From a bacterium (GTDB lineage: Bacteria > J088 > JAWLBW01): 64,000 nucleotides of DNA. Positions 16,490 through 61,292 of this stretch are shown one piece after another; within the stretch, counting starts at the first letter, position 1, and every line of letters begins with the position of its first letter. The notes below the pieces were generated by a model, which was not told the DNA's origin, searched no databases, and saw only the letters and a list, made by a program, of their open reading frames with translations. Location of the stretch: NCBI GenBank assembly GCA_041690355.1, contig JAWLHK010000007.1, positions 1 to 64,000 of the forward strand, in the 5' to 3' direction. Both the position numbers and the translations under genes were made by a program.

Positions 16490-18808
16490 GTGAGCGATAA
16501 TCGAACCCTCCAGATCCTCGACTGGCCGCGCATCGTGAGCGCGCTTGCCTCACGCACGGCGACGCCGTACGGCCGCGAGCGCGCGGCGCAGGCGCGGCCG
16601 CTCGCGCGGGATGTCGCCGCGCAACTGAGCCGCCGGGTCGGCCTGTGGCGCGACCTGCTGGCCGCCGAGATCCGGCCGCCGCTCGGCAACGTGCCCGAGA
16701 TCGCCGCGCTGCTCGATCGGATCCGCCGCGAAGGGCGGCTCGACGGGGTCGAGCTGCTGGCGGTCGCCGACAACATGGATCTCGTCGCCGCGGTGGGCCG
16801 GTTCCTCGGCGACATGGGCCTGCCCGAAGACCTGCGGGCGCACGCATCGCGGTTTCCGAATTTCGCCGCCATCGCCGACCGCATCTACCGCGTCGTCGAT
16901 CCGTCGGGCGGCGTGCGCGACGACGCCAGCGATGAGCTGCGCCAGGCCGTGAGCGAAGAGCGTTCGCGCTCGACGGAATTGCGTGAACGGGCCGAGGCCC
17001 TGCTCGACGACGAACAGATGCGGCCGCTGCTGCGCGATCGCTACGTCACCCAGCGCGAAGGGCGCTACGTGCTCCCCATCCGCATCGATCGCGGGGCCGG
17101 CCTGCGCGGCATCGTGCACGACGTATCGGGTTCGGGCGCGACCGCCTATGTTGAACCCGAGGCGCTGCAGGCGGCCAACAACCGCCTGGTCGAGGTCAGG
17201 GCCCGCATTCGCGACGAGATCGCCCGCCTGCTCGCCGAACTGTCGGCCGCCGTCGCGCGCGTGGCCGAAGAGCTGCAACAGGGGCTCGACGCCCTCGGCG
17301 AGCTCGACGCCGAATTCGCGCGCGCCCTGCTCGCGCAGGACTGGCATGCCGTGCCCGCCGTCGACGGCGCAGAGGTGTCACTGCGTGACGCGCGCCAGCC
17401 GCTGCTGCTTCTGCGCGGCATCGAACCGGTACCCATCGACGTCCGCCATCCCGGGGTGGGGCGGGGGGTCATCCTGTCGGGCCCCAACGCGGGCGGCAAG
17501 ACCGCCGCCCTCAAGACACTCGGGCTCGCCTTCGTCCTGGCCCGCAGCGGTTGCCACGTCCCGGCGGCCGAGGCCGTGCTCCCCCTCGACTGGGAGGTCG
17601 AAGCCGAGCTCGGCGATCCGCAGAACCTGGGCGAAGACCTGTCGACCTTCAGCGGGCATCTCGCGCGCATCGTAGAGCTGACGCGCGTCGCGCGGCCCGG
17701 AGCGCTTCTGCTGGTCGACGAACTGCTCAAGGGGACCGACCCGGCCGACGGCGCGCCCCTCGCCCGGGCCTGGCTCGAAGACATGGCCGGGTGCGGCGCG
17801 GCCGTCTGGGTGACCACCCACTATGGCAGTATCAAGGCGCTCCCCGTCGTCGACGAGCGCTTTCTCGCGGCGCGCACCGCCTATGCCCGGGGAGAGCCGC
17901 AGTACACGATCCTCTACGGCGAAGCCGGTTCTTCCTATGCCTTCGAGACGGCCGAGCGGCTGGGCTTTCCGCACGCCACCATTGAGCGCGCCCTGCAGTA
18001 CCGCGAGGGCGAGATCACGCACGCCGAGAAGGCGCTCTCCGAGGTTGACGAGCTGCGCAAGGCGCTCGACGGCGCCAGGCGCCAGGCCGAATCCGACCGC
18101 CAGGAGCAGCGGAGGCTACGCGACCGGCTGCAGGCGCAGCTCGATCTGCTCCAGCGCGAACAGAAGGAGCTCGTGCGGCGCGCCGTCGAGCCGACCCTGG
18201 CCAAGCTCGAACGCGCCCGCGAAGTCGCCGAGAAAGCTGAACAGACGATCCTGCGTCGCAAGAAGGAGGCGCCGCGCAAACGGGTCGAGCTCGGCCACGT
18301 GCGCGCCGGGGTCGAGCAGGCGGTCGCCGAACTCGAAGCGCCCGGCAAGGTCGACCCGGCCGATCTGAAACCCGGCGTGACCGTCTACAGCCGCCGCTTC
18401 CGCCGCAACGGCGTCGTGTCGCGCCCCCCCGAGCGCGATCACGTCACGTTGCAGATCGGCGCCATGCAGATCGAGGTGCGCATCGCCGACCTGGCCCCCG
18501 CCCGGCCCGAAGCCGACAGGGCCGCGGCCCCCGCGCGCCGGGCCCGTACGCCCGAGCCGGTCGCCGACCGGCAGGATGTGCGCGGCGAGCGCGTCGAAGA
18601 CGCGGTGCGCCGCCTCGAACCGTGGATCGACGGGGCGCTGCGGGCGCGTCAGAGCGGCGCCCTGCGCATCCGTCACGGCGTCGGCAGCGGCGCCCTGCGC
18701 GACGGCATCCGCGCCTGGTTGCGCGAGCACCCGGCGGGCCTCGACTTTCGCCCGGGGGCCGAAGACGAAGGGGGCGACGGCGTCACCGTCGTGGAACTCG
18801 GAAATTGA
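16490..18808 (+). CDS. mutS2: MutS2 family protein with C-terminal Smr domain
   Basis: TLQILDW N-terminus, GIVHDVSGSGAT, GPNAGGKT, LSTFSGH, DE..GTDP, TTH, coiled coil, HGVGSGALR Smr; start uncertain (16436 or GTG 16490). Confidence 0.9.
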   Translation: MSDNRTLQILDWPRIVSALASRTATPYGRERAAQARPLARDVAAQLSRRVGLWRDLLAAEIRPPLGNVPEIAALLDRIRREGRLDGVELLAVADNMDLVAAVGRFLGDMGLPEDLRAHASRFPNFAAIADRIYRVVDPSGGVRDDASDELRQAVSEERSRSTELRERAEALLDDEQMRPLLRDRYVTQREGRYVLPIRIDRGAGLRGIVHDVSGSGATAYVEPEALQAANNRLVEVRARIRDEIARLLAELSAAVARVAEELQQGLDALGELDAEFARALLAQDWHAVPAVDGAEVSLRDARQPLLLLRGIEPVPIDVRHPGVGRGVILSGPNAGGKTAALKTLGLAFVLARSGCHVPAAEAVLPLDWEVEAELGDPQNLGEDLSTFSGHLARIVELTRVARPGALLLVDELLKGTDPADGAPLARAWLEDMAGCGAAVWVTTHYGSIKALPVVDERFLAARTAYARGEPQYTILYGEAGSSYAFETAERLGFPHATIERALQYREGEITHAEKALSEVDELRKALDGARRQAESDRQEQRRLRDRLQAQLDLLQREQKELVRRAVEPTLAKLERAREVAEKAEQTILRRKKEAPRKRVELGHVRAGVEQAVAELEAPGKVDPADLKPGVTVYSRRFRRNGVVSRPPERDHVTLQIGAMQIEVRIADLAPARPEADRAAAPARRARTPEPVADRQDVRGERVEDAVRRLEPWIDGALRARQSGALRIRHGVGSGALRDGIRAWLREHPAGLDFRPGAEDEGGDGVTVVELGN

Positions 18809-18920
18809 CGATTTACAATCTAAATTGACGATTTTGGGCTTTCCCCTTATCCGCTCGTTTCCGCCCCCTTTCCGGATACTTTGCGGAAATTGGCATTCGT
18901 AATCGTCAATCGTAAATTCC
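18804..18920. repeat. Inverted pair of degenerate TTGACGA/TCGTCAA heptamer arrays
   Basis: ATTGACGATT at 18804 and 18824, reverse complement at 18901; left array starts in the mutS2 TGA. Confidence 0.8.
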
Positions 18921-18929
18921 CCTGCCTGC

Positions 18930-18938
18930 TGGTAAAAT
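18930..18938 (+). promoter_or_regulatory. Extended -10 element upstream of alaS
   Basis: TGgTAAAAT 25 nt before the ATG. Confidence 0.5.
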
Positions 18939-18963
18939 GGTTGGTTTACGGTAGAACGGAACC

Positions 18964-21651
18964 ATGGCAGCAATTCCCCTGAAATCCGGAAGTGAGCTTC
19001 GCGAAGCCTTCCTCCAGTATTTCGCCCGCAACGGCCATCGCATCGTGTCGAGCAGTTCCCTGGTTCCCCATCAGGACCCGACCCTGCTCTTCACGAATGC
19101 GGGCATGAACCAGTTCAAGCGCCTCTTCACCGGTGAGGAGACCCGTGACTACTCGCGCGCCACGACATCGCAGAAATGCGTGCGCGCAGGGGGCAAGCAT
19201 AACGATCTGGAGAACGTGGGGCATACCGCCCGCCACCACACGTTCTTCGAGATGCTGGGAAATTTCTCGTTCGGCGACTACTTCAAGCGCGAAGCCATCC
19301 AGTTCGCCTGGGCGTTTCTCATCGACGAACTCCAGCTGCCGGTCGACCGTCTGCGCGTCACCGTCTTCAAGGGCGAAAACGGCGTCCCCGGCGACGACGA
19401 AGCCTTTCAGCTCTGGCAGGAAGTTGCCGGCGTGCCCGCCGATCGCATCCACCGCCTGGGGATGAAGGACAACTTCTGGGCCATGGGCGACACCGGCCCC
19501 TGCGGCCCCTGCTCCGAGATCCACTATCACCAGGGCGACCAGCTCCCGTGCCTCGAAGAACAGGCCGGGCGCGCCTGCCTGGGAGTCGAGTGCGAGTGTG
19601 ATCGCTGGCTCGAAATCTGGAATCTGGTCTTCATGCAGTTCAACCGGCGAGAGCCGGGTGGCGCCTATGAGCCGCTGCCAAAGCCGAGCATCGACACCGG
19701 GATGGGGCTCGAGCGGCTCGCCGCTGTCGTGCAGGGCAAGCTGACGAATTACGATACCGACCTGTTCATGCCGCTCATCGAGTTTGCGGCCGAAAAGGCG
19801 GGGGTGACTTACGGCGCATCCGCCGACACCGATGTCGCCCTGCGCGTGGTCGCCGATCACTGCCGCGCCATGACCTTTCTCATCGGCGACGGCGTGCTCC
19901 CCTCGAACGAGGGGCGCGGCTACGTCCTGCGCCGGATCATGCGCCGCGCGGCGCGCTTCGTGCGCAAGCTCGAAATTCGCGAACCGTTCCTCTATGCCGT
20001 CAGCGGCCAGGTCATCGAGCAGATGCGGAATGCCTTTCCCGAACTCGTCGACAATGCGAGCTACATCGCCCGCGTCGTCCGGGCCGAAGAGGAACGCTTC
20101 AACGAAACGCTCGACAAGGGGATGGTCGTCTTCGAAGACGCCGTCGCACGTCTGGAGAAGGCGAACGAAAAGACCATCGGCGGCGACGTCCTCTTCAAGC
20201 TGTACGACACCTACGGATTTCCCGTCGACCTGACGCGCATCATGGCCGAAGAGCGCGGGCTCGGCATCGACGAAGCCGGCTTCGAGAGCGCGATGGAAGA
20301 GCAGCGCGCCCGCGCCCGCGAGCATTGGAAGGGCTCGGGCGACGAGGCGGTGCGCGGGGTGTTCAACGGAATCGCCGCTGAAGTCGGGGCCACGAAATTC
20401 GTCGGCTACGAGACGACCGAGACCGATACGCGCGTGCAGCGCATCGTGCGCGGCGATCAGATCGTCGGCGAAGCCGGCCCGAACGACGAAGTCGACCTCG
20501 TCCTCGAAGCCACCCCTTTCTATGGGGAAGGGGGCGGACAGCTCGGCGACAAGGGGACCATCGGATTCGCGGGCGGCCGCGTGCGTATCGTGGATGCGAA
20601 GAAGCCGCTGCCGGGGCTCATCGTGCACCGCGGCATCGTCGAAGAGGGAGCGCTCCGTTCAGGCGACGCCGTGCGCGCGCAGGTCGACGACGAGCTGCGC
20701 GACGCCACCCGCCGCAACCACACGGCGACCCACCTGCTGCACGCAGCGCTGCGCATGGTCCTGGGCGACCATGTCAAGCAGGCCGGCTCGCTGGTCGGGC
20801 CCGATCGCCTGCGTTTCGACTTTACTCATTTCAGCCCGCTCACGCCGGCCGAGCTGCAGGAGATCGAAGACCGGGTCAACGCCGAGATTCTGCGCAACAC
20901 GAAGGTCGAGACCGAACTGCTCTCCTACCAGGAAGCGATGAAGACGGGCGCCATGGCCCTCTTCGGCGAAAAATACGAAGACGAGGTGCGCGTGGTCAGC
21001 GTACCGTCGTTCAGCCGCGAGCTCTGCGGCGGAACGCATGTGAGCCGTACGGGCGACATCGGCCTCTTCCTCATCACGAGCGAAGGCGGCGTGGCCGCCG
21101 GCGTGCGCCGCATCGAGGCCGCGACCGGGCGCAACGCCATCCAGACCGTACGCGATCGCTACCTGAAGCTGGCCGAAGCCGCCGGCGCATTCAAGGTCGC
21201 TCCCGAAGAACTCCCCCAGCGTGTTCAGAAAACACAGGAGACGATCAAGGATCTCGAGCGCGAGATCCAACGCCTCAAGCAGAAGCTTGCGGGCGGCGCC
21301 TCGGTCGATCTGCTGGCCGGTAAAAAGGATATCGGCGGCGTAACCGTGCTCGCCGCCGAGGTCGAGGCCCGCGATCCGAAGGAGCTGCGCGAAACCTACG
21401 ATCAGGTCAAGCAGCGCCTCGGCTCTGGGATTCTCGTCCTGGGTGCCCGCGCCGAAGACAAGGTCTTTCTGCTCGTCGGCGTCTCTGACGATCTGACCGG
21501 CCGGTTCCAGGCGGGAAAACTGATCAAGCCGCTGGCCGAACTCCTGGAAGGCCGCGGGGGCGGCAAGCCCGAACTCGCGCAGGCGGGGGGCGCGCGTCCC
21601 GACCGGCTGCCCGAGGCCCTGCAGATGGTCGACAAGGTTGTGGCCGGGTAA
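18964..21651 (+). CDS. alaS: Alanine--tRNA ligase
   Basis: LLFTNAGMNQFK, HHTFFEMLGNFSFGDYFK, DTGMGLER, HTATHLLH, ELCGGTH, GGGK..AQAGG. Confidence 0.98.
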   Translation: MAAIPLKSGSELREAFLQYFARNGHRIVSSSSLVPHQDPTLLFTNAGMNQFKRLFTGEETRDYSRATTSQKCVRAGGKHNDLENVGHTARHHTFFEMLGNFSFGDYFKREAIQFAWAFLIDELQLPVDRLRVTVFKGENGVPGDDEAFQLWQEVAGVPADRIHRLGMKDNFWAMGDTGPCGPCSEIHYHQGDQLPCLEEQAGRACLGVECECDRWLEIWNLVFMQFNRREPGGAYEPLPKPSIDTGMGLERLAAVVQGKLTNYDTDLFMPLIEFAAEKAGVTYGASADTDVALRVVADHCRAMTFLIGDGVLPSNEGRGYVLRRIMRRAARFVRKLEIREPFLYAVSGQVIEQMRNAFPELVDNASYIARVVRAEEERFNETLDKGMVVFEDAVARLEKANEKTIGGDVLFKLYDTYGFPVDLTRIMAEERGLGIDEAGFESAMEEQRARAREHWKGSGDEAVRGVFNGIAAEVGATKFVGYETTETDTRVQRIVRGDQIVGEAGPNDEVDLVLEATPFYGEGGGQLGDKGTIGFAGGRVRIVDAKKPLPGLIVHRGIVEEGALRSGDAVRAQVDDELRDATRRNHTATHLLHAALRMVLGDHVKQAGSLVGPDRLRFDFTHFSPLTPAELQEIEDRVNAEILRNTKVETELLSYQEAMKTGAMALFGEKYEDEVRVVSVPSFSRELCGGTHVSRTGDIGLFLITSEGGVAAGVRRIEAATGRNAIQTVRDRYLKLAEAAGAFKVAPEELPQRVQKTQETIKDLEREIQRLKQKLAGGASVDLLAGKKDIGGVTVLAAEVEARDPKELRETYDQVKQRLGSGILVLGARAEDKVFLLVGVSDDLTGRFQAGKLIKPLAELLEGRGGGKPELAQAGGARPDRLPEALQMVDKVVAG

Positions 21652-21658
21652 CGATCGC

Positions 21659-22696
21659 GTGTCCGCCTCCGAAGCCACCCCCGCCCTTGCGGTCGCCGGG
21701 GTTCGCAAAGCCTACGGTTCGGTTCAGGCCCTGGCCGGCGTCTCTTTCGACGTCGCGCCCGGCAGCGTCACGGGCCTGCTCGGCCCGAACGGCGCCGGTA
21801 AGTCGACCCTCATGCAGTGCGTGACGACGTTGCTGCGGCCCGACGCCGGCGCGATTCGCATTTTCGGCACCGACGCGGCCGCCGATCCGCGCGGCGCCCG
21901 CGACCTGCTCGGCTACGTCCCGCAGACCCTGGCGCTCGACAAGGTTCTGACCGGCCGCGAACACCTCGAGCTTCACGGCGCCCTCTACCACGTGCCGCGC
22001 GGGAGGATGCGCGAAGCCATCGGCGAGGCGTTGACCCTCGTCGGACTCGCCGACGTGGCCGACCGCCGCGTCGGAACCTATTCCGGAGGAATGGCGCGCC
22101 GCCTCGATCTCGCCGCCGCCCTGCTCCACCGCCCTCGTCTGCTGGTCCTCGACGAACCGACGGTGGGCCTCGACATCCAGTCCCGCTCAGCCATCTGGAA
22201 GTTCGTGCGCGCCCTGGCCGACGGCGGAACCGCGGTGCTGATCGCCAGCCACCATACGGAAGAGATCGAGTTCCTCAGCGACCGCGTCGCCATCCTGGAT
22301 CACGGGGCCGTGCGCGCCGAGGGGACGCCTGACGACCTGAAGGCACGCTTCGGGAGCGCCCTCGTTCACCTCAAGCTGCGCGAGTTCGCCGCGCCGGAGG
22401 AGCTGGAGTCGGCCGCCGGCACGCTGCGCCAGTCGAACCGCTATGCTCGCGTGCTCGTCGATACCCGGGACGGCGGCCGCATCACGGTGGTGCTTGCCGA
22501 GCGCCCCGAGAGTCCGGAGGCCGTCCGTAGGGAATTGGCAGGCCTTCTTTCCGTCGGCGACGAAGGGTTCTTCGCCTTCGCCCTCGAACGCCCCACGCTC
22601 GAAGACGTCTTTCTCGACGCCACTGGCCATGCCCTGCGCGACGCCGCCTGGACAAGCGCCGAAGGGGATCCCATCGGCAGACGGAGGCCGGCATGA
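21659..22696 (+). CDS. ABC transporter ATP-binding protein (DrrA-like)
   Basis: GPNGAGKST, YSGGM, LVLDEPT, PTLEDVFL; start approximate. Confidence 0.9.
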   Translation: MSASEATPALAVAGVRKAYGSVQALAGVSFDVAPGSVTGLLGPNGAGKSTLMQCVTTLLRPDAGAIRIFGTDAAADPRGARDLLGYVPQTLALDKVLTGREHLELHGALYHVPRGRMREAIGEALTLVGLADVADRRVGTYSGGMARRLDLAAALLHRPRLLVLDEPTVGLDIQSRSAIWKFVRALADGGTAVLIASHHTEEIEFLSDRVAILDHGAVRAEGTPDDLKARFGSALVHLKLREFAAPEELESAAGTLRQSNRYARVLVDTRDGGRITVVLAERPESPEAVRRELAGLLSVGDEGFFAFALERPTLEDVFLDATGHALRDAAWTSAEGDPIGRRRPA

Positions 22697-23505
22697 GCAG
22701 TTTCGTCCGCGAGACGATGGCGCTCACGCGCCGGTGGTTTCTGCACACCCTGCGCCAGCCCATCGCCGTCGCCGCCGGTCTGTTTCAGCCGCTCATCTGG
22801 CTGTTTCTGTTCGGCTCCCTGTTCCACCAGCTGCGCCTGCCCGTGGCGGCCGGCGGCGTTGAAGTCAGCTACATCCCCTTTCTGGCGGCCGGCGTCATCG
22901 TCTTCACCGCCTTCAACAGCGCGCTCGCGACCGGCGTTCCCGTCCTCTTCGACAAGGAAAACCGGTTTCTTGAGCGGCTGCTCGTCGCCCCGCTGCGCTC
23001 GCGCTTCAGCATCGTCGCCGCTTCGGCCCTGCACATCTTCGTCATGAGCTGGGTGCAGACGGCCATCGTCATGCTCGTCGTCGATGGGTGGAGCGCCGAC
23101 GTTTCGCTCGGCCTGAGCTCCTTCTTCGGCGTCCTCCTCGTGACCTCGCTGCTCATTCTCGGCTTCACCGTGCTGAGCATCGGGCTCGCCTTCGGCCTGC
23201 GGGCGCACTTCGAGATGCTGTCGCTGATCCAGGTCGTCAGCCTGCCGATGGTCTTCGTCTCGTCGGCCTTCGCGCCGGTGAGCCTCATGCCCGCCTGGCT
23301 GCAGTGGCCGGCCACCCTGAATCCTCTCACGGCGACCATCGAGCCGGTGCGCGCACTCATCCTCCAGGGGCGTCTGCCGGCCGGCCCGCTGCTCGAGGCC
23401 CCTTGGGGCACGCTCGGCTTCGCCGGCTGCGTGGGATACCTGCTCGTCTTCGATCTGGTCGCCGTGCTCGCCGTCGGCGCCTTCCTCCGCCGTTACCTCC
23501 GTTAG
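22693..23505 (+). CDS. ABC-2 type permease (DrrB-like)
   Basis: About 6 transmembrane segments, FLERLLVAP, LNPLT; ATGA overlap with the ATPase gene. Confidence 0.88.
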   Translation: MSSFVRETMALTRRWFLHTLRQPIAVAAGLFQPLIWLFLFGSLFHQLRLPVAAGGVEVSYIPFLAAGVIVFTAFNSALATGVPVLFDKENRFLERLLVAPLRSRFSIVAASALHIFVMSWVQTAIVMLVVDGWSADVSLGLSSFFGVLLVTSLLILGFTVLSIGLAFGLRAHFEMLSLIQVVSLPMVFVSSAFAPVSLMPAWLQWPATLNPLTATIEPVRALILQGRLPAGPLLEAPWGTLGFAGCVGYLLVFDLVAVLAVGAFLRRYLR

Positions 23506-25889: not shown

Positions 25890-25901
25890 GGAGATTCGCC
25901 C

Positions 25902-31896: not shown

Positions 31897-32769
31897 ATGG
31901 GTTCAGAAGGCTACATCCTCACCGAAGACATCCGCGACATCGACGGCAATCCGGTGCTCCCGGCGGGGAGCGTCGTCAACAAGACCGTGCTCAAGAAGGT
32001 CGAGCAGAGCCGTCCGGCGTTTGCCGGCGTCGAACTCAAGACGCGCGTGCTCTATGAGGATTTCGAGTCGCTGGTCGAAGAAGCGAGCTACAAAGCGACG
32101 CTGCCGACGAACGACGTCCGCAACAAGGTTCTGCGCTACCTGGGCCGCATCACGCTCCCCGAGCAGCTGTTCCGCGAGATTGAGCAGATGCGCGACCAGA
32201 GCCTCATCGTTTATCACCACACGCTGGCGACGACCTTTCTGGCGACCCGCCTCGTGCTCGAGTACATCTTCTTCGCCGACGATGTCATCAAGGTCGCCTC
32301 GGCGGCCCTGACGCGCGACGTGGGCATGACGCGGCTCCCCGCCGAGCTGCTCAAGAACACCGACCACCTGTCGAAGCAGGAGTATCACCGCATCAAGCGC
32401 CACCCCATCGTCTCGATGGTGCTGCTCACTCACTACCTGGGCGACGGCCTGAATTCGCTCGTCGGCCTGCGTCATCATGACGGACGCAAGCGCGGGGGCA
32501 ACCCCAGCAAGCTGATGGATCTGATGACGATGGTCGACATCTTCAACGCGCTCATCTCGCCGCGCACCTTCCGCACCCGCGCCTTCGACGTGCGCGGCGC
32601 ATTGGATGTGCTCACCGAGATGGTCAAGAAGGGCGAGATGAACGAAGACCTGGTCAAGCTGCTCGTGGCCACCTACCGCAAGGGAAACGAGCGGGCGCGC
32701 CAGATCGTGCTCTCGGGAGAGAAGCTCGGATACGCCCCGACCGAGAACTTCTACGGCGTGGATTCCTGA
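31897..32769 (+). CDS. HD-GYP-like protein with degenerate catalytic motifs
   Basis: YHHT, ALTRDVG (HD to RD), KRHP, RHHD, GGNP, VDIFNALISPRTFR; it is the 3' part of the 28351-32769 track ORF. Confidence 0.75.
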   Translation: MGSEGYILTEDIRDIDGNPVLPAGSVVNKTVLKKVEQSRPAFAGVELKTRVLYEDFESLVEEASYKATLPTNDVRNKVLRYLGRITLPEQLFREIEQMRDQSLIVYHHTLATTFLATRLVLEYIFFADDVIKVASAALTRDVGMTRLPAELLKNTDHLSKQEYHRIKRHPIVSMVLLTHYLGDGLNSLVGLRHHDGRKRGGNPSKLMDLMTMVDIFNALISPRTFRTRAFDVRGALDVLTEMVKKGEMNEDLVKLLVATYRKGNERARQIVLSGEKLGYAPTENFYGVDS

Positions 32770-32816
32770 CCTACGGATTTTCGGACACACGACGCCGTGG
32801 GTGATCGCTCGGCCGC

Positions 32817-33197
32817 CTATGCCTGCATGGCCCGCGAAACCCGCCCGACGAAGTCTTCGACGCTGAACGGCTTGGTGATGTAGTCGCTCACCCGGCGGAC
32901 CTGGAGTGCGTCCTGGATCTCTTTTTCGCGGATGCGCGCCGAGAGGATGATGACCGGCACGTCGCGGTGCTTCTCATCCTGGCGGATCTGGCCGTAGACG
33001 TCCCAGCCGCTCAGCCCGGGCATCATCAGATCGAGAATCACGAGCGCGAAACGGTTCTCGTTCAGCGCCGACGCGATGTCGGGGCTCGTGTTCGCCTGAC
33101 AGACTTCATACCCCTCGTGCTGGAGAATGCTCGTCACGAGATTGGTGATGCCCGGCTCGTCGTCGATGACGAGTATGCGCTGCCGTGCTGCAGTCAT
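32817..33197 (-). CDS. Single-domain response regulator (CheY-like receiver)
   Basis: ILVIDDE, LDLMMPGLSG, ILSA, YITKPF. Confidence 0.92.
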   Translation of the reverse strand: MTAARQRILVIDDEPGITNLVTSILQHEGYEVCQANTSPDIASALNENRFALVILDLMMPGLSGWDVYGQIRQDEKHRDVPVIILSARIREKEIQDALQVRRVSDYITKPFSVEDFVGRVSRAMQA

Positions 33198-33255
33198 CGC
33201 CTGTATTCTAGCAGGGTCCCGCCCGAATCCAAACCCCGAAATTCCCGCTCCCGGA

Positions 33256-36617: not shown

Positions 36618-37040
36618 TCAGCTGCCCGCCTTCTCGGCCCGGGCAGAGCCGTGTTTCAGCTTGTAGTCGTCGATGGCCGCCTTGATGGCGTCTTCGGCCA
36701 GCACCGAGCAATGGATCTTGACGGGCGGCAGCGCCAGCTCGGCGTGAAGGTCTTCGCTGCGGATCTCGGCGGCCTGATCCAGTGTGCGCCCCTTGAGCCA
36801 CTCGGTGGCGAGCGAACTGGAGGCGATTGCAGAACCGCAACCGAACGTCTTGAACTTCGCATCTTCGATGACGCCGTCGCGCACCTTGAGCTGCAGCTTC
36901 ATGACGTCGCCGCAGTCTGCCGCGCCGACGATCCCCGTGCCCACCGAGGGGTCCGAGGCGTCGAGGCTGCCGAGGTTCCGGGGGTTTTCTGCGTGTTCGC
37001 GTGCCTTGTCGCTGTCAGCCATGTCAGCCATGTCAGCCAT
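36618..37040 (-). CDS. iscU: Fe-S scaffold IscU
   Basis: ENPRNLG, CGDVMKLQ, FKTFGCGSAIASSS, LPPVKIHC. Confidence 0.95.
   Translation of the reverse strand: MADMADMADSDKAREHAENPRNLGSLDASDPSVGTGIVGAADCGDVMKLQLKVRDGVIEDAKFKTFGCGSAIASSSLATEWLKGRTLDQAAEIRSEDLHAELALPPVKIHCSVLAEDAIKAAIDDYKLKHGSARAEKAGS
37014..37040 (-). repeat. Perfect (ATGGCTGAC)x3 tandem repeat at the iscU start
   Basis: Encodes MAD-MAD-MAD. Confidence 0.9.
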
Positions 37041-37057
37041 GATCGTTTGTCTCTCCC

Positions 37058-37535: not shown

Positions 37536-37566
37536 ATTGACGATTTACGATTGACGATTGACGATT
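37536..37566. repeat. TTGACGA heptamer array (4+ units)
   Basis: TTGACGA TTTACGA TTGACGA TTGACGA TT. Confidence 0.9.
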
Positions 37567-37569: not shown

Positions 37570-37909
37570 AGAAAAAAAACCAGTCTTGTCCAGAATCGGT
37601 TCAGCGCGTGACCGTTCGGCCTGAGGAGCCGGGCCTTGGAAATCGAGGTTCAATTCGGACGGCATCGTCTCGCAAGGTTGTCGGCCCCGGCGTCTCGAAG
37701 GCTCAGAGCCGCATGAACACCGGGATCCAGAGCTTCAGAACACGCAATTGCTGAGGTGGCGAGCAAGATCCTGCAGACATTCTGACCCCTCGACAGGCGG
37801 GGCGACAGGATCAGCGGAATCTCAGAATTCCAGCTGCCATCTGTTCCCTTTCCTGGACAGCACTGTAAAAAACCAGGAAAGAACCAAGGCGGCGCTTGCC
37901 AGGGTCCGC
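37570..37909 (-). pseudogene. Possible decayed four-helix-bundle gene remnant
   Basis: No credible intact ORF; minus-strand fragments ERTL.., DSADPVAPPVEG, DLARHLS, IACSEA loosely echo the family; lies between inverted heptamer arrays. Confidence 0.25.
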
Positions 37910-37937
37910 TCAATCGTCAATTGTCAATCGTCAATCG
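37910..37937. repeat. TCAATCG heptamer array (4 units), inverted partner of the 37536 array
   Basis: TCAATCG TCAATTG TCAATCG TCAATCG; contains the epimerase stop codon. Confidence 0.9.
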
Positions 37938-53323: not shown

Positions 53324-54280
53324 TCAGGCGGCCCGCCGCCTGCCGGTGGCGGGCCGTTCGCCGCCATGCTCGACGTACCATTGATAAGTCTCGGCGATCC
53401 CTTCGCGAAGACCGATGCGCGGCCGCCATCCCAGGGCACCGAGGCGGCCGACGTGAAGCAGCTTTCGCGGCGTGCCGTCCGGCTTACCGGCGTCCCAGAA
53501 GATGGGACCGCGGTGGCCGGCGATCTCCTGCACGACCAGGGCCAGATCGCGAATGGCGATGTCTTCTCCGGTCCCCAGGTTGATGAGGTCGTTAGCGTCT
53601 GCGTGCAGCATGAGATGGACGCATGCGTCGGCCGCGTCGTCGGCGTGCAGAAACTCCCGGCGCGGCGCGCCGCTCCCCCAGAGGATCACCGGACGATCGG
53701 GGAGCGCTTCGTGGAACTTTCGGATGAGAGCCGGAAGTACATGGCTCTCTTCCGGGTCGAAGTTGTCGCCCGGACCGTACAGATTCGTCGGCATGGCGCA
53801 CAGGAACTTCGTCCCCAGCTGCCGGTTGTAGGCGCGGCACATCGTAATCCCGGCAATCTTGGCGACCGCATAGGGTTCGTTCGTCGACTCGATCCGGCCC
53901 GTGAGCAGATACTCCTCGCGGATCGGCTGGGCGCAATCGCGCGGATAGATGCAGGACGAACCGAGAAACAGGAGCTTGTGCACCCCGAAGGCCGCCGCCG
54001 CGTCGATGACGTTGGTCTGAATCTGAAGATTATCGCGGATGAATTCCGCCGGCCGCGTCTGGTTGGCCCAGATGCCGCCGACGCGGGCGGCCGCGAGAAA
54101 GACGTATTCGGGCTTGTCCCGCTGAAAGAGCCGGTCGACCTTGGCGCGGTCGCGCAGATCGACTTCGGCCGAAGACCGCAGGATGAGATTCCGGTAGCCC
54201 AGCGCCGTGAGGCGCCGCGCGATGGCAGAGCCGACCAGGCCCCGATGCCCGGCCACGAAGATCCGGCTGTTGAACTGCAT
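53324..54280 (-). CDS. fcl: GDP-L-fucose synthase (copy 1)
   Basis: [43 protein letters not shown]. Confidence 0.93.
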   Translation of the reverse strand: MQFNSRIFVAGHRGLVGSAIARRLTALGYRNLILRSSAEVDLRDRAKVDRLFQRDKPEYVFLAAARVGGIWANQTRPAEFIRDNLQIQTNVIDAAAAFGVHKLLFLGSSCIYPRDCAQPIREEYLLTGRIESTNEPYAVAKIAGITMCRAYNRQLGTKFLCAMPTNLYGPGDNFDPEESHVLPALIRKFHEALPDRPVILWGSGAPRREFLHADDAADACVHLMLHADANDLINLGTGEDIAIRDLALVVQEIAGHRGPIFWDAGKPDGTPRKLLHVGRLGALGWRPRIGLREGIAETYQWYVEHGGERPATGRRRAA

Positions 54281-54394: not shown

Positions 54395-54423
54395 ATTCCT
54401 GATTCTTGATTCTTGATTCCTGA
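54395..54423. repeat. ATTCYTG heptamer array (4 units)
   Basis: ATTCCTG ATTCTTG ATTCTTG ATTCCTG. Confidence 0.9.
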
Positions 54424-54459
54424 CGAAGCAAGGGCAGGAAGAGTGCCGGCCGAAAAAGT

Positions 54460-55839: not shown

Positions 55840-55880
55840 GGAATAATCCTCTCTGGCCCGTTCACTGTACCATCCCGGCG

Positions 55881-57092
55881 TTACCCCTGACCAAGCGTGG
55901 CCGGGGGAACTGCGTCCGACGCGCGCCGCGCCGCGAGCCGAATTCCACCCGGCCGCCCGAGCCAGAAGACTGAAAGCCCGAACCACGCCCACGTAAGGAT
56001 GTCGTCGAGGCGCAAAGGGGACCACGCCGAAAACCAGAAGATTCCGAGGAGCATGGTCAGGCCGAGGCGGGCCGCCGTGGAATCGGCGGCGGCGCGCAGG
56101 AGCCAGGGGAAGAAGAAGAGGAGAATTCCGAGGCGGTAGTCGAAATGATTCCCCAGCACAAAGACCCCCGCGAACAGCCCGGCGCCCATCATGGCGAGAA
56201 CGCCGTCGAGCGGGCGCTCTGCCGGGGGGACGAAGAACGACGTCCGCATGCGGCGGGCCAGCGCCAGGGCGACGACGGCGACAATGGCGGCAAGCACTGC
56301 GGAAACTGCGGAAAGATACGCGGCGTCGACGCGAAGGATCTCGAGGAGCCGGGCGGGGAGCACGCGCGAGCCGAACGAGAACCAGGTCGCCCGGGGAACG
56401 GCGGCGCCGATCAGGCGGATATCTTCCAGATTGACGACGACGTAGACGCCGAAGGCCAGCGCCAGAACCATGCCCAGCCGGAGGGCCCATTCGCGCGGAA
56501 TCTGCCGCAGGGCGCTCGCGCCGAAGATGGGAAACAGCTTCAGGGCCCCGGCCGTGAAGAGAATGGCCGTTCCGGTTCCGTAGCGGGAACGCGAGAGGGC
56601 GCGTCCGGCCAGAATCAGCACGGTGAACATGAGGATATCGATATTCCCCCGTTCGACCCCGAGCATGATGGGCGGCGAAAGCAGCGCCGCCCCGAACAGA
56701 AGCCCCTGCCACCAGAGGAGCGGACCGGCCATCCACAGGACCGCCGCAAGAAACAGCGCCCCGAGGACGACGCCGACGGGGTTCGTGTGCGCGACCGTGA
56801 GCCCGGCACCCTGCCAGATGGAAATCCAGACGCGTGGATAGTTCATGCGCCGCTTCCACGGATCGCAGGGGTTCGTGCGCAGGACGTCGAGCCCGCGGGC
56901 GGCACACTCGGCTCCCGTGCTGATGTTCCGCAGATCGGCAAATGCGGGAGAGCGGGTCGGCACGCCCATGCGGTCCCAGGCGCGCAGCTCCGGACGCAGC
57001 ACGTGCCCGTAAAGCACGATGCCGAAGTAGATCAGCAGCATCGCCAGGGCAATCAGGCGGCCATCCAGGAATTTACGATTGACGATTGACAA
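55881..57092 (-). CDS. Multi-pass membrane protein, GT-C fold glycosyltransferase (GT87/DUF2029-like)
   Basis: FADL, MNYP, ERGNID, LKLFP motifs and many transmembrane segments; true start uncertain because the first codons (SIVNR) come from the heptamer array. Confidence 0.65.
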   Translation of the reverse strand: MSIVNRKFLDGRLIALAMLLIYFGIVLYGHVLRPELRAWDRMGVPTRSPAFADLRNISTGAECAARGLDVLRTNPCDPWKRRMNYPRVWISIWQGAGLTVAHTNPVGVVLGALFLAAVLWMAGPLLWWQGLLFGAALLSPPIMLGVERGNIDILMFTVLILAGRALSRSRYGTGTAILFTAGALKLFPIFGASALRQIPREWALRLGMVLALAFGVYVVVNLEDIRLIGAAVPRATWFSFGSRVLPARLLEILRVDAAYLSAVSAVLAAIVAVVALALARRMRTSFFVPPAERPLDGVLAMMGAGLFAGVFVLGNHFDYRLGILLFFFPWLLRAAADSTAARLGLTMLLGIFWFSAWSPLRLDDILTWAWFGLSVFWLGRPGGIRLAARRASDAVPPATLGQG

Positions 57093-57105
57093 TTGACGAT
57101 TTACG
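57070..57105. repeat. TTGACGA heptamer array (5 units)
   Basis: TTTACGA TTGACGA TTGACAA TTGACGA TTTACG; contains the stop codon of fcl copy 2. Confidence 0.9.
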
Positions 57106-58027
57106 GGACGGACGTCTCATGCTGCAGGAACCATTCGTAGGCCGAGCGGATGCCTTCGCGCAGCGGAATGCGGTGTTTCCAGCCGAGGGCGTGGAGGCGA
57201 TCGACGTTGAGCAGCTTGCGCGGCGTGCCGTCGGGCTTGCTCGTATCCCAGACGAGCTCGCCCCTGTGCCCGACGACCTCCTGCACGAGCTCGGCCAGTT
57301 CGCGGATGGTCACGTCTTCACCGGTGCCGATGTTGACGATGTCCGACCCCTCGTAGGTCTCCATGAGGTGCACGCAGGCGTCGGCCAGGTCGTCGGCGTG
57401 CAGGAATTCCCGCCGCGGCGCGCCGGTGCCCCACACGGTCACCGGCCGGTCGGGAAGCGCCTCGTGAAACTTGCGTATCAGGGCCGGGAGCACGTGGCTC
57501 GTCTGCAGATCGAAATTGTCATTCGGCCCGTAGAGGTTCGTCGGCATGACGCTCAGGAAGCGCGTCCCATGCTGCCGATTGTACGACTGGCACATGACGA
57601 TGCCTGCGATTTTCGCTACGGCATACGGCTCGTTGGTCTTCTCGAGCGGACCCGTCAACAGATATTCCTCGCGGATGGGCTGGGGGCAGTCGCGCGGATA
57701 GATGCAGGACGATCCGAGGAACAGAAGCTTCTGCACGCCGTGTCGCCACGCCGCATCGATGATGTTCGTCTCGATCAGCAGATTGTCGCGGATGAAGTCT
57801 GCCGGGTAGGTGTTGTTCGCCAGAATTCCGCCGACCTTCGCGGCGGCCACGTAGACCTGCTCCGGCTTCTCGGCGGCAAAGAAGGCCTCGACGGCGGCGG
57901 CGTCGCGCAGATCCAGTTCCGCCGACGTCCGCAGCAGCAGCCGGTCATGGCCGCGCGCCATCAGATTGCGCACGAGCGCCGAGCCGACGAGTCCGCGGTG
58001 GCCGGCAATAAAGATCCGAGAAGTCAT
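57101..58027 (-). CDS. fcl: GDP-L-fucose synthase (copy 2)
   Basis: [39 protein letters not shown]. Confidence 0.94.
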
Positions 58028-58056
58028 CAGTCGTAAGTCGTAAGTCGTAAGTCGGT
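58022..58056. repeat. AGTCGTA heptamer array (5 units), left arm of the four-helix-bundle cassette
   Basis: AGTCATC AGTCGTA AGTCGTA AGTCGTA AGTCGGT; the first unit contains the fcl start codon. Confidence 0.9.
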
Positions 58057-58094
58057 AAAAAAACCGGGGGAATATTCATATTGCTGCTTTTTCG

Positions 58095-58124
58095 TTGACA
58101 TTTCCACGGACCCTGCACTATAAG
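58095..58124 (+). promoter_or_regulatory. Near-consensus sigma70 promoter of the four-helix-bundle gene (probably leaderless)
   Basis: TTGACA-18 bp-TATAAG ending 7 nt before ATG 58132. Confidence 0.6.
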
Positions 58125-58131
58125 AGGCGGT

Positions 58132-58536
58132 ATGACAACCATCCGCCGTTTCGAAGATAGCCTCGCATGGCAGAAGGCAAACGCTCTCTCCGCGTTTGTC
58201 CACCGTCTCTCGGATAGAAAGGCATGGGGGCGCGACTGGTCCCTTCGAGAGCAGATTCGGTCGGCTGCCGGGTCCGTACCGGGAAACATCGCCGAGGGCT
58301 TCAACAGCGGAGGCGACCGTCACTTCCGACATTACCTCCGCATCGCAAGGGCATCGGCGGGTGAAGTTCGTGCTCACGCATACACCGCGCACCATATCGG
58401 GTACCTGTCCGATGAGGAACTGAGTTCAATCTGCAGCGCCAGCCACGAGTGCGAACGCCTGATCACCGGATTCATCAATTACCTGACGCGTTGCCTGGAA
58501 CAACTGGAAACCGACGCAGAGGAAAGCAGTTCATGA
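58132..58536 (+). CDS. Four-helix-bundle protein (23S rRNA intervening-sequence protein/bAvd-like, TIGR02436-type)
   Basis: FEDSLAWQKA, LREQIRSAAGSVPGNIAEG, FRHYLRIARASAGEV, IGYL. Confidence 0.9.
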   Translation: MTTIRRFEDSLAWQKANALSAFVHRLSDRKAWGRDWSLREQIRSAAGSVPGNIAEGFNSGGDRHFRHYLRIARASAGEVRAHAYTAHHIGYLSDEELSSICSASHECERLITGFINYLTRCLEQLETDAEESSS

Positions 58537-58563
58537 TCACCGGTTCACAATGAGCAACCTGTC

Positions 58564-58597
58564 ACTGAAGACTGAAGACTGGCGACTTACGACTGAG
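58564..58597. repeat. ACTnnnG heptamer array (5 units), right arm of the cassette
   Basis: ACTGAAG ACTGAAG ACTGGCG ACTTACG ACTGAG; contains the gmd stop codon. Confidence 0.85.
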
Positions 58598-59663
58598 CCC
58601 GATGACCCGCCGCTATCACTTGTTCTTCCTTGGCCCACTTGATATCCTCGCGAACCATCTCGGCGCATAGCTCCTCCACGCTGGTCTTCGCCTCCCAGCC
58701 GAGCTTCTCCTTCGCCTTCGAAGGATCGCCGAGCAGCGTCTCGACTTCGGTCGGGCGGAAGTAGCGCGGATCCACTTCGACGAGCACCTTGCCGGTCTTT
58801 GCGTCGCGCCCCTTCTCCTCCACACCCTTCCCTTCCCATTCCAACTGGATATCGACGTGCTCGAAGGACGCCTCGACGAAGCGGCGGACAGAGATCTGGC
58901 GGCCGGTGGCCAGCACGAAATCCTCGGGTTCCGGCAGCTGCAGCATCCGCCACATGCCGTCGACGTAATCACGGGCGTGCCCCCAGTCGCGCAGGCTGTC
59001 GAGATTTCCCAGATACAGCTTGCCCTGCATCCCGAGATGGATGCGGGCGACGGCGCGCGTAATCTTGCGCGTGACGAAGGTCTCGCCGCGCACGGGAGAT
59101 TCGTGGTTGAACAGTATCCCGTTGCAGGCGTACATGCCGTAGGCTTCGCGGTAGTTCACCGTGATCCAGTAGGCATACAGCTTCGCCGCCGCATACGGAC
59201 TGCGCGGATAAAACGGCGTCGTCTCCTTCTGCGGCGTCTCCTGCACCTTGCCGAAGAGCTCCGACGTGGATGCCTGATAGAACCGGGTCTTCTGCTCGAG
59301 GTTCAGGATGCGGATCGCTTCGAGAAGCCGCAGGGTGCCCACGGCGTCGGCGTTGGCCGTGTATTCCGCCGTCTCGAAGCTGACCTGCACGTGGCTCTGG
59401 GCGGCCAGGTTGTAGACCTCGTCGGGCTGCACTTCCTGCACGATCCGGATGAGGTTCGTGCTGTCGGTCATGTCGCCGTAGTGCAGGAAGAAGCGCGGGT
59501 CGTCGATATGCGGATCCACGTAGAGGTGGTCGATGCGCCCGGTGTTGAACGACGACGATCGCCGCTTCACCCCGTGCACGACGTACCCCTTCTTCAGCAG
59601 CAGTTCCGCCAGATAGGAACCGTCCTGCCCGGTCACGCCGGTGATCAATGCTACTTTTGCCAT
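58587..59663 (-). CDS. gmd: GDP-mannose 4,6-dehydratase
   Basis: [55 protein letters not shown]. Confidence 0.97.
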
Positions 59664-59667
59664 TACT

Positions 59668-59701
59668 TGAAGTGACGAGTTACGAGTGACGAGTGACGAA
59701 T
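59668..59701. repeat. AGTGACG heptamer array, direct-repeat copy 1
   Basis: TGAAGTGACGAGTTACGAGTGACGAGTGACGAAT; ends 4 nt upstream of the gmd ATG on the minus strand. Confidence 0.9.
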
Positions 59702-59722
59702 AACTTCTAAATCACTTGTTTC

Positions 59723-59753
59723 TCAAGAATTAAGAATCAGGAATCAGGAATCA
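59723..59753. repeat. TCARGAA heptamer array (4+ units)
   Basis: TCAAGAA TTAAGAA TCAGGAA TCAGGAA TCA; contains the acyl-CoA dehydrogenase stop; inverted relative to the 54395 array. Confidence 0.88.
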
Positions 59754-60932
59754 AACTGCGGCCGGCTGCTTCTTCTTGCCCGGCAGAATGCCCATGAGCT
59801 TGCAGATGATGCCGAGCATGATCTCGTCGGCGCCGCCGCCGATGGAGAGGAGGCGCGAATCGCGCATCGCGCGGGAGACCTGGCTCTCCCACATGTAGCC
59901 CATGCCGCCCCAGTACTGCAGGCAGGAATCGGCCACCTCACGGGTCAGCTTTCCGGCTTTCAGCTTGGCCATCGAGGCCAGCTTGACGACCTCCATGTCG
60001 TCCGGATTATCCACATAGCGCTCGACCGTCGTGTACACCAGGGCGCGCAGGGCCTCGACTTCGGTCTGCAGCTCGGCCAGCTTGAAGTGCACGACCTGAT
60101 TGTCGATGATCGGCTGGCCGAACGTCTTGCGCTCCCGCGTGTACTCGATCGTTCCCTGAATCATGCGATCCATGGAGCGCAGCGAGCTGGCGGCGCCGAA
60201 CAGGCGCTCTTCCTGAAACTGGCGCATCTGCATGATGAAGCCCATGCCTTCTTCGCCGATGCGGTACCGCTGCGGAACGCGGACGTTGTCGAAAAAAATC
60301 TGCGCGGTGTCTGACGACCACATGCCGAGCTTGTGCAGCTTCTGGGCCCGCGAGACGCCGGGCGTGTTCATCGGAACGACGATCATCGTCTTGTTGATGT
60401 GCGGCTTGTCGTCGGAGGTGTTGGCGAGCAGGCAAATCCAGTCGGACTGCATGCCGTTGGTGATCCACATCTTGGTGCCGTTGATGACGTAGTCGTCGCC
60501 GTCCTTCACGGCGGTGGTCTTCAGGCCGGCGACGTCGGACCCGGCGCCCGGCTCACTGACGCCGATGGAGCAGACCATGTCACCGGCGATGGTCGGCGCC
60601 AGGAACTCGCGGCGCAGCTCGTCGGAGCCGAACCGGGCCAGCGCGGGGGTCGCCATGTCGGTCTGCACGCCGATGGCCATCGGCACGCCGCCGCAGTTGC
60701 AGTTGCCGAGTTCTTCGGCGAACGCGACGGCATAGGAGTAATCGAGCCCCATCCCCCCGAACTCGGTCGGCTTGCTGATCCCGAGCAGCCCCAGGTTCCC
60801 CATCTTCTTGAACAGCTGGTGGGCGGGAAAAATGCGATCCTCTTCCCACTGGTCGACATAAGGATTGATTTCCTGTTCGACGAACTTGCGGACGGTCTGG
60901 CGCAGATTCTCGTGTTCGGCCGTGAAAAGCAT
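59751..60932 (-). CDS. Acyl-CoA dehydrogenase, citronellyl-CoA dehydrogenase AtuD-like
   Basis: Acyl-CoA dehydrogenase motifs; GGMGLDYSY..CGGVPMAIGVQTDM.TPALARFGSDELR matches AtuD as I recall it. Confidence 0.88.
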   Translation of the reverse strand: MLFTAEHENLRQTVRKFVEQEINPYVDQWEEDRIFPAHQLFKKMGNLGLLGISKPTEFGGMGLDYSYAVAFAEELGNCNCGGVPMAIGVQTDMATPALARFGSDELRREFLAPTIAGDMVCSIGVSEPGAGSDVAGLKTTAVKDGDDYVINGTKMWITNGMQSDWICLLANTSDDKPHINKTMIVVPMNTPGVSRAQKLHKLGMWSSDTAQIFFDNVRVPQRYRIGEEGMGFIMQMRQFQEERLFGAASSLRSMDRMIQGTIEYTRERKTFGQPIIDNQVVHFKLAELQTEVEALRALVYTTVERYVDNPDDMEVVKLASMAKLKAGKLTREVADSCLQYWGGMGYMWESQVSRAMRDSRLLSIGGGADEIMLGIICKLMGILPGKKKQPAAV

Positions 60933-60996
60933 GGAGCACTCCGGGAGGGGATTTCGAGTATCCGTTGATTCTCCCGTATGGAGCGTCCATTTTCAA

Positions 60997-61030
60997 TGAA
61001 GTGACGAGTGGCGAGTGACGAGTGACGAAT
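60997..61030. repeat. AGTGACG heptamer array, direct-repeat copy 2
   Basis: TGAAGTGACGAGTGGCGAGTGACGAGTGACGAAT; 32 of 34 positions identical to copy 1. Confidence 0.9.
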
Positions 61031-61050
61031 CAAGACCGGAAAAAAGACAC

Positions 61051-61082
61051 AAAAAAGGCCGGCACGAGAGTTCGCGCCGGCC
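61051..61082 (-). terminator. Intrinsic terminator upstream of the atuD-like gene, with no CDS ending before it
   Basis: GGCCGGCGCGA-ACTC-TCGTGCCGGCC-TTTTTT on the minus strand. Confidence 0.7.
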
Positions 61083-61181
61083 GCTCGACAGCCCCATGAG
61101 GGAGGTAAGGCGGGCCATCGGTTCTGAGGGTACCCGCTCGGCAGGTTTTCCGTCGATACCCAAAAATGGCAAACTTCGGGG

Positions 61182-61292
61182 GTCGAGAGTCGAGAGTCCA
61201 GAGTCGAGGGTCCGAGGGTCCGAGGGTTTACCGAAGCGCCTGGGGTCACATGTCGCCGACTCATGACGCATGAGACGCTCGACTCTTGACTC
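61182..61292. repeat. GTCSRGR heptamer array (6 units) plus a short inverted partner at 61278-61292
   Basis: GTCGAGA GTCGAGA GTCCAGA GTCGAGG GTCCGAG GGTCCGAG ... CTCGACTCTTGACTC. Confidence 0.8.

Follow-up and report, generated by a model that had tools for sequence, protein, structure and literature searches.

Tandem arrays of heptanucleotide repeats have been catalogued for decades in cyanobacteria, Xanthomonas, Burkholderia and the Beggiatoaceae, and, to our knowledge, the 7-base repeats of bacteria, known since 1990, are still unexplained. This study is concerned with a set of such arrays in a 64-kb stretch of bacterial DNA, hereafter termed the window, which belongs to contig 7 of the genome under study (assembly G000; 4.64 Mb, 65.6% G+C, 42 contigs). 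Many of the arrays in the window lie within a glycan locus, where two of them enclose a small gene at 58132-58536 that encodes a four-helix-bundle protein of the PF05635/TIGR02436 family. An earlier note, made from the letters of the window, had listed thirteen of these arrays and had proposed that a protein may read or write them, the four-helix-bundle protein being one candidate.

The closest described repeats are those reported by Rehm et al. (2015, PMC4692102), who, in the sections of the paper drawn on here, characterized GGGAATC units in Xanthomonas and GGGGA(C/T)T units in Nostoc PCC 7120, which prefer four units, lie near or over stop codons under a strand rule, form convergent pairs and are transcribed. 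Likewise, the parts of MacGregor (2015, PMC4679880) used here deal with the TAACTGA repeats of Beggiatoaceae and the short tandemly repeated repetitive (STRR) sequences of cyanobacteria, and also summarise the proposal of Mrazek et al. (2007) that 7-nt units arise by slippage. As far as these portions of the published accounts extend, the arrays described below resemble the earlier repeats in period 7, intergenic location, about four units, convergent inverted pairs and the lack of a known function, but differ from them in that one unit dominates each published genome, whereas at least nine families coexist here. The excess of period 7, the intergenic and stop-adjacent placement with a strand rule, and the length of about four units recur in the genome under study. 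Repeats of this kind, and the rule that governs where they lie, have already been published; the arrays described here also share the build of PF05635 gene cassettes, a link that is absent from the portions of the literature considered. A published connection between PF05635 and heptamer repeats was not found, the parts considered of PMC8700078 and PMC8491059 included.

A second group of relatives is found among the 23S rRNA intervening sequences of Leptospira and Coxiella that bear an open reading frame (ORF), in which a small S23p/PF05635 ORF is located within inverted repeats that form a long stem. Intervening sequences of this class are cut out of the transcript by RNase III. The likeness consists of a PF05635 ORF inside inverted arms that are able to pair, whereas the cassette considered here is situated between protein genes (fcl and gmd), its arms are tandem heptamers, and most copies are gene-less, the gene having been lost or never present. 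No rRNA was found in the window, and the cassette does not lie in a 23S rRNA helix. Repetitive extragenic palindromes with their mosaic clusters (REP/BIME) and transposable elements of the miniature inverted-repeat kind (MITEs) are comparable in their hundreds of short intergenic copies, hairpin cores, mosaic modules and lineage-specific bursts; here, the termini are instead tandem 7-bp arrays, and neither a transposase nor a target-site duplication was identified, a RAYT gene not having been searched for. TRAP, which is recognised by the TRAP fold together with triplet repeats in a 5' leader, shares with the present case the idea of an oligomeric ring that reads one short repeat per subunit, and differs in fold and in the placement of the repeats, which are not in leaders here. 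Finally, the four-helix-bundle fold is also that of Avd (4dwl, 8ub7; TM 0.70), the accessory protein of diversity-generating retroelements (DGRs), which, in the portion of the preprint considered here, is a positively charged pentamer with an 'Avd-binding RNA' element (bioRxiv 10.1101/2023.10.23.563531). Such a pentamer with an RNA element would fit, by analogy, a scheme of one repeat unit per subunit. The window lacks, however, the adjacent reverse transcriptase and the template/variable repeat pair of a DGR, the only RVT_1 gene being on contig 18; the window protein itself was rejected as a DGR Avd, having no NF033474 match, and the best score obtained was 35.4 bits against a cut-off of 80.

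The reading that we favour, at somewhat better than an even chance, regards the arrays as arms at the ends of intervening-sequence-like cassettes and of their gene-less mosaic derivatives, and not as microsatellites grown in place. In this build, an arm consists of about four to five imperfect 7-bp units with a fixed outer-to-inner polarity, followed in about a third of arms by the inner motif GTCCTTGCCGG (or its complement), two copies of which could form a hairpin. Two outward-facing arms bracket a segment between the end of one gene and the promoter of the next, and the complete form carries a PF05635/TIGR02436 gene between complementary arms, as at 58021-58596. Most brackets in the genome are gene-less, many of them with arms of two families, and they would have spread by the copying of imperfect templates. 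What carries this reading is the anatomy of the arms, their polarity, a copy-and-paste signature, and a link to the gene family that extends across phyla, all of which were observed, together with insertion relative to the sister genome in both spacers examined.

Within the cassette at 58021-58596, a left arm is followed by a promoter-like site, then by the gene, and finally by a right arm whose sequence is the left arm's inverted complement. The encoded protein matches PF05635 with 85.7 bits (cut-off 33.8) and TIGR02436 with 87.2 bits (cut-off 24), and is modelled as four helices with a pLDDT of 90. Its best fold matches are XCC0516 (2gsc; TM 0.79/0.90, root-mean-square deviation 1.4), BT_0352 (2rld) and the Avd proteins already mentioned, each of which was deposited with chains A-E. 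The promoter-like site, TTGACA-18-TATAAG, was read by eye ahead of the gene and was not called by the consensus scan, which likewise gave no terminator within 57950-58700; no U-tract follows the hairpin. The two arms pair with each other in both the minimum-free-energy and the centroid folds. The features of the window are as follows, where strand is stated for the gene alone.

18801-18836: left arm of the AATCGTC family (ATTGACG on the plus strand), about five imperfect units; holds the mutS2 stop codon TGA at 18806-18808; the orthologous spacer of the related genome G001 is without an array.
18886-18918: right arm of the AATCGTC family, inverted partner of 18801-18836, 45 bp ahead of the start of the next gene.
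37536-37566: left arm, ATTGACG in 4.4 units, 46 bp from the start of a minus-strand Rrf2 gene.
37577-37880: copy of a non-coding dispersed repeat between two arms, separate from the arrays; no Rfam match.
37910-37937: right arm, TCAATCG in 4.0 units; holds the epimerase stop codon at 37931-37933; the G001 orthologue is three residues longer and without an array.
54395-54423: lone array between fcl copy 1 and manC, ATTCCTG in 4.1 units (AATCAGG family, left-arm orientation).
57071-57105: array of ATTGACG in 5.0 units, overlapping the stop codon of fcl copy 2 at 57101-57103.
58021-58054: left arm of the gene cassette, AGTCGTA in 4.9 units, overlapping the start codon of fcl copy 2.
58132-58536, plus strand: PF05635/TIGR02436 four-helix-bundle gene, 134 aa, with the scores given above.
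58564-58596: right arm of the gene cassette, ACGACTT/ACTGAAG in 4.7 units, inverted and complementary with respect to the left arm; holds the gmd stop codon at 58587-58589.
59671-59699: left arm, AGTGACG in 4.1 units (ACTCGTC family), 7 bp from the gmd start; contains an imperfect 28-mer common to 11 array loci.
59723-59754: right arm, AATCAAG/AATCAGG in 4.6 units; holds the acyl-CoA dehydrogenase stop codon at 59751-59753.
61000-61028: left arm, AGTGACG in 4.1 units, called by Tandem Repeats Finder.
61176-61227: array of AGTCGAG/GGGTCGA in 7.1 units, called by Tandem Repeats Finder.
61278-61295: CTCGACT in 2.5 units, a short inverted partner of 61176-61227, 33 bp before a glycosyltransferase start.

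The description in the earlier note agrees well with this list. Ten of its thirteen arrays were called by Tandem Repeats Finder at a score of at least 30 (those starting at 37536, 37910, 54395, 57071, 58021, 58564, 59671, 59723, 61000 and 61176), and the remaining three (18801-18836, 18886-18918 and 61278-61295), which were not called, are imperfect or short yet visible in the sequence. The five stop codons said to lie within arrays do so, namely those of mutS2, the epimerase, fcl copy 2, gmd and the acyl-CoA dehydrogenase, and the two contacts with start codons were also recovered: array 58021-58054 contains the start of fcl copy 2, and 7 bp separate array 59671 from that of gmd. At least one array is present in six of the seven gaps of the glycan locus between 54.3 and 61.3 kb. 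The arrays 59671-59699 and 59723-59754 constitute one bracket with arms of different families. The statement that no array lies in a coding region holds for all thirteen and fails for shorter period-7 matches (up to 3.6 units), some of which occur inside genes of the window, e.g. at 9130-9155. Gene strands were settled by Pfam, which places fcl copy 1, manC, an unknown ORF, fcl copy 2, gmd and the acyl-CoA dehydrogenase on the minus strand.

The association of arrays with this gene family was then observed throughout the genome, which contains ten PF05635 matches above the cut-off and one below. An array lies within 150 bp of nine of these ten genes, against 16.4% of all 3713 genes, and arrays on both sides accompany five of the ten, against 1.6% of all genes, so that the link to four-helix-bundle genes raised in the earlier note is borne out. 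When the flanks of the ten genes were read by eye, seven had inverted arms, one had direct arms and two were one-sided. The arm units vary with the paralog (AATCGTC, AGTCGTA, AATGGTC, AGCGCCC, ACGTCCG, GGGGGAG, AATCAGG and AAATGCC), and the paralogs are only 21-33% identical.

The same association is found in other phyla. Two sets of loci were collected: the first includes 62 loci of 10 kb, found with one paralog, from Acidobacteriota, Planctomycetota, Chloroflexota, Bacteroidota and others, and the second includes 80 loci from 30 genomes picked by kinship only. An array of period 7-9 lies within 300 bp of the gene in 49/62 loci of the first set and 69/80 of the second (118/142 in total), and arrays occupy both sides of the gene at 30 and 34 loci, respectively. 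In the first set, 55 period-7 arrays fall in the 30 kb within 250 bp of the gene versus 61 in the 459 kb farther off, which amounts to a density about 14 times higher, and period-8 arrays are about 18 times denser within the same distance. At two-sided loci, the units of the two arms are inverted complements with at most one mismatch in 26/30 (first set) and 27/34 (second set) cases. The units themselves are diverse, 82 distinct ones being present among 97 arms, and the phased arms share a weak core composed of A, then G>A>T, then T>G (3.03 bits versus 2.75 +/- 0.08 in shuffles). The upstream arm is richer in G than in C at 71 loci and the reverse at 9, and the arrays next to the gene have a median length of about 4.5 units. 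The suggestion that four to five units would suit a pentamer is consistent with this median and with the five chains per entry of the solved relatives, an agreement that is drawn by analogy.

Across the genome, 667 arrays of period 7 reach a length of at least 3.5 units, compared with 108, 66 and 42 for periods 6, 8 and 9, so that the prominence of period 7 seen in the window is genome-wide. Intergenic positions account for 571 of the 667, and intergenic DNA makes up 11.2% of the genome. Under an expectation of uniform placement of each array within its own spacer, the arrays no more than 10 bp away from a stop codon number 175 versus 87 expected, which agrees with the proposed enrichment at stops, whereas start codons are not enriched (47 versus 63.5 expected). 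Convergent spacers are the richest, with 173 arrays in 631 spacers versus 165 in 1193 tandem spacers. No fewer than nine unit families are present together and join up in fixed orders, and G-rich units are found in only some of them; the largest include AAGCGCC (119 arrays) and ACTCGTC (112 arrays). The A-N-T-C skeleton that had been put forward as the common core of all units stands in part. It is present, in some rotation on either strand, in 441/743 arrays, and occurs in 30/85 unit classes versus 14.1 +/- 3.1 in letter shuffles, none of 500 of which reach 30, although the classes differ by single changes and are not independent in this test. It is missing from 41% of arrays, including the AAGCGCC, AGCGCCC and ACGTCCG families, which constitute a quarter of all arrays. 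Moreover, the strand had been chosen array by array, and these choices disagree with the real polarity of the arrays; since A-N-T is its own reverse complement after rotation, the skeleton can be found by picking a strand for each array.

The lengths, imperfections and orientations of the arrays carry the signature of copying. The copy number has a mode of 4.0-4.5 units for period 7 only, the other periods declining steadily. Perfect repeats, which together with a unit number that varies between cells or strains mark phase-variable contingency loci, were found here, as a perfect 28-nt periodic stretch, in only 22 of 550 arrays of at least 28 nt, and the most widely shared 28-mers are imperfect ones, which recur at 17, 16 and 11 loci, one of them in the window array at 59671. 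Within arrays, the unit variants are mostly single transitions. Clusters recur in a set order and relative orientation, for instance (AAGCGCC)n, a hairpin, and then (AATCGTC)n or (ACTCGTC)n, and in the commonest composite the hairpin between the arms is G+C-rich. Each family shows a single polarity, to which 238 arrays conform and 14 do not (169/10 at stops, 69/4 at starts), in a count of arrays strictly outside genes and at most 40 bp from one. Within spacers, the order of left (L) and right (R) arms is LR in 82 cases, LRR in 18, LLR in 14 and RL in 1, and the polarity is tied to the spacer, not to the direction of transcription. It also matches that of the arms of PF05635 genes in the four families that can be compared (AATCGTC, AGTCGTC, ACGTCCG and AGCGCCC). 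The inner-flank motif GTCCTTGCCGG is common to arms of six unit families, and CTTGC is found in 212/623 inner versus 49/623 outer flanks. Genome-wide, GTCCTTGCCGG and its complement form the base of a hairpin between arms; the motif is not clearly present in the window, and on contig 23 it recurs five times following the PF05635 gene.

Comparison with G001, the only other genome of the same family, shows that the arrays were inserted relative to this sister genome in both spacers examined. The G001 mutS2 spacer (88 bp) and epimerase-Rrf2 spacer (118 bp) are without arrays, and their counterparts here measure 155 bp and 441 bp. In both, the stop is provided by an arm that starts inside the last 1-4 codons, and immediately beyond the other arm the former -10 region has been retained. 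The overlap with stop codons is best explained by replacement: arms took the place of the last 1-4 codons and brought a new TGA or TAA. The stop codons found in arrays would be accounted for by arms that were inserted at, or replaced, the final few codons, and by the TGA or TAA that recurs every 7 bases in several unit families. Such units close reading frames within a short distance. The idea that the arrays are regulators anchored on codons was not upheld, the arrays being located at either end of genes, where they face outward as the arms of inserted segments.

Several side observations concern the PF05635 cassettes and the segments between arms. One PF05635 gene, with ACGTCCG-type arms, is present in three near-identical copies (C5:68992-72041 and C2:371975-372397, where C denotes the contig), and the downstream sequence common to these duplicates extends past the arm, which suggests, from the sequence, a larger duplicated unit. 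A stretch GCTTTTT(C/T)GTTGACATTTCC is conserved between the upstream arm and the PF05635 gene in three cassettes (58055-58131, C20 and C7:231162-231228); it is kept though the paralogs are otherwise only 21-33% identical, and may be a shared promoter or operator. The segment of 343 bp between the arms at 37.5 kb was considered as a gene remnant and rejected, since it is a separate, non-coding dispersed repeat, which is represented by 37577-37880 and 18 other copies (e.g. C15:64223-64441 and C26:38278-38494) of about 230-300 bp with 70-85% identity. Its ends are like CAGTCTTGTCCA...TGGACAGCA, a consistent reading frame is absent, no Rfam match was obtained, and 28 pairs make up its consensus fold, double changes occurring in 7 of these. 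Several of its copies lie within heptamer arrays and are flanked left and right by one and the same array in direct orientation, and one copy truncates a PF05635 gene. Decayed PF05635 genes were also sought in gene-less brackets, where no further matches appeared even at E<=10.

Other observations relate to neighbouring genes. The fcl-like epimerase occurs twice in the window (53324-54280 and 57101-58027), and further gmd and fcl paralogs with 73-78% DNA identity are located on contig 29 (C29:13065-14067 and 32307-33198). A perfect 9-bp repeat, TGTCAGCCA, in 3.2 units lies at 37013-37041, at the junction of two minus-strand genes. The sole reverse transcriptase of the genome, of 532 aa (L235; G000:C18:58500-65000), stands beside Abi_C-domain and PLD-like genes, a neighbourhood that is probably a defence island; a reverse-TRANSCRIPTASE origin of the elements was dismissed, the only RVT_1 gene being the one in this Abi_C/PLD island.

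A considerable number of results weigh against the cassette reading and are gathered here. About 744 arrays stand against only ten PF05635 genes, and for the AAGCGCC and ACTCGTC families the assembly offers no cognate PF05635 gene. Since three of the ten arose by recent duplication, the in-genome test overstates independence; one cassette (C7:230799) is the direct-arm case mentioned above. In 267 of 300 neighbouring pairs, the arrays belong to different unit families, and mixed cluster types such as K+A+ (21) and K+C+ (18) outnumber the same-family inverted ones (A-A+ 9, R-R+ 5); neighbouring arrays being mostly of different families, pairing between arms cannot serve as the general function. 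Furthermore, 342 of 508 clusters are single arrays, and the whole cassette folds with no advantage over shuffles (z = -1.2). The data that served to define each family's polarity are also those in which the 238 conforming arrays were counted, and the 11.2% intergenic figure derives from home-made codon-model gene calls (3713 genes). Inward reading closes at least two frames in 372/623 arrays versus 154 for outward reading, and stop codons in all three frames were rejected as a design principle, which holds in four families, is reversed in AGTCGTC, and finds ACGTCCG and AGCGCCC almost stop-less. No transposase, target-site duplication or reverse transcriptase was linked to the elements, in work that did not include a search for RAYT. 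Across 20-kb samples of 66 kin-chosen genomes, the predicted correlation between array and gene counts is present and weak (Spearman 0.26, p=0.04), period-7 arrays being seen in 7/26 genomes with a PF05635 gene versus 5/40 without. G001 has five PF05635 genes yet only 2 period-7 arrays in 39.7 kb. Conversely, a 1.0-Mb genome, G080, has 12 period-7 arrays in a 20-kb sample (L148, C1:20001-40000), every one of them in a spacer, and gives no match to PF05635 or TIGR02436 even at E<=1, which makes it a natural test case for other companions of such arrays. Apart from these results, in a scan meant to connect the published Xanthomonas repeats with XCC0516, three GGGAATC units were found in 0/401 sampled genomes (the class of locus L052), a sample that probably held no repeat-bearing Xanthomonas; the reversed control, CTAAGGG, gave 6 matches in one sampled gammaproteobacterial genome, G294, which represent another heptamer array family.

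Some of these results speak for ordinary simple-sequence repeats, in which polymerase slippage favours 7-nt units, growth is tolerated outside genes, and the link to PF05635 is a side effect of spacers. Under such an explanation, the array-rich G080 without a PF05635 gene, the weak correlation across genomes and the predominance of single transitions among unit variants would be expected, and heptamers are, in the part of PMC4679880 considered, the most abundant long repeat class in many prokaryotes. Slippage is nevertheless distinctly improbable as the source of the arrays, as the earlier note had also argued on the grounds of conserved period and core. The length distribution is non-monotonic with its mode at 4-4.5 units, only 22/550 arrays are perfect while identical imperfect 28-mers recur at up to 17 loci, the polarity is strict (238 versus 14), an inner-flank motif is conserved, and in other phyla the density of arrays at PF05635 genes is raised about 14-fold, with complementary arms. 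A further alternative is a service to the host, the arrays and hairpins being regarded as REP/BIME-type cis elements that would work in the transcripts of flanking genes as 3'-end stabilisers, terminators or processing sites and be kept by selection for host gene expression, with the four-helix-bundle gene as a passenger. The twofold excess of arrays within 10 bp of stops, the richness of convergent spacers (173/631 versus 165/1193 in tandem ones) and the G+C-rich hairpin between the arms of the commonest composite all agree with this explanation, as does the report (Rehm et al. 2015, PMC4692102, in the sections drawn on) that most of the Xanthomonas repeats undergo transcription and are found beside stop codons or overlapping them. 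However, both orthologous G001 spacers examined are without arrays, many unrelated unit families occupy the same positions, the hairpin is not followed by a U-tract and the consensus scan of 57950-58700 is without a terminator, and the polarity follows the spacer and not transcription; we rate such host elements as rather unlikely, if somewhat less so than slippage.

The least probable of the explanations, and in our judgement a very unlikely one, is that of the earlier note, according to which the 58132-58536 protein regulates the neighbouring glycan genes through array RNA in a TRAP-like manner, with one unit per subunit. In its favour, the relatives of the protein are pentamers, the arrays have a mode of 4-5 units, six of the seven gaps from 54.3 to 61.3 kb contain one, and one relative in the family binds RNA. 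On the other hand, the arrays of the glycan locus belong to four unit families, and only two of these arrays match the arms of this gene; the same families are found at hundreds of unrelated genes; and the arrays, which are close to stops and flank genes on either side, occupy spacers and 3' ends, not specifically leaders. The fold, a four-helix bundle, is unrelated to that of TRAP.

With the arrays taken as arms of cassettes and of their gene-less derivatives, further steps can be sketched. The presumably pentameric protein might bind the arms with roughly one unit per protomer, as the five-chain structures of its relatives suggest by analogy, and complementary arms might pair in RNA or in single-stranded DNA. 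The mode of copying is likewise conjectural, and no copying enzyme was found in the genome. A stronger version of the reading, which we put forward tentatively and hold to be possible rather than probable, states that PF05635 pentamers are sequence-specific readers, one unit per protomer, each unit comprising a 3-nt core (A; G>A>T; T>G) and a 4-nt part matched to the paralog, and that gene-plus-arms cassettes are the source of the intergenic heptamer repeats (STRR and long simple sequence repeats, LSSR) found dispersed in many bacterial phyla. If true, this would be a system in which a protein recognises a repeat and which leads a selfish life cycle of its own.

In this genome, one polarity rule governs at least nine unit families, and it is the rule of the arms around a gene family with pentameric solved members and an RNA-binding relative in DGRs. 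For annotators, it follows that C-termini and stop codons beside such arrays may be recent replacements. Meanwhile, the old descriptive puzzle of the heptamer repeats becomes one that can be tested experimentally.

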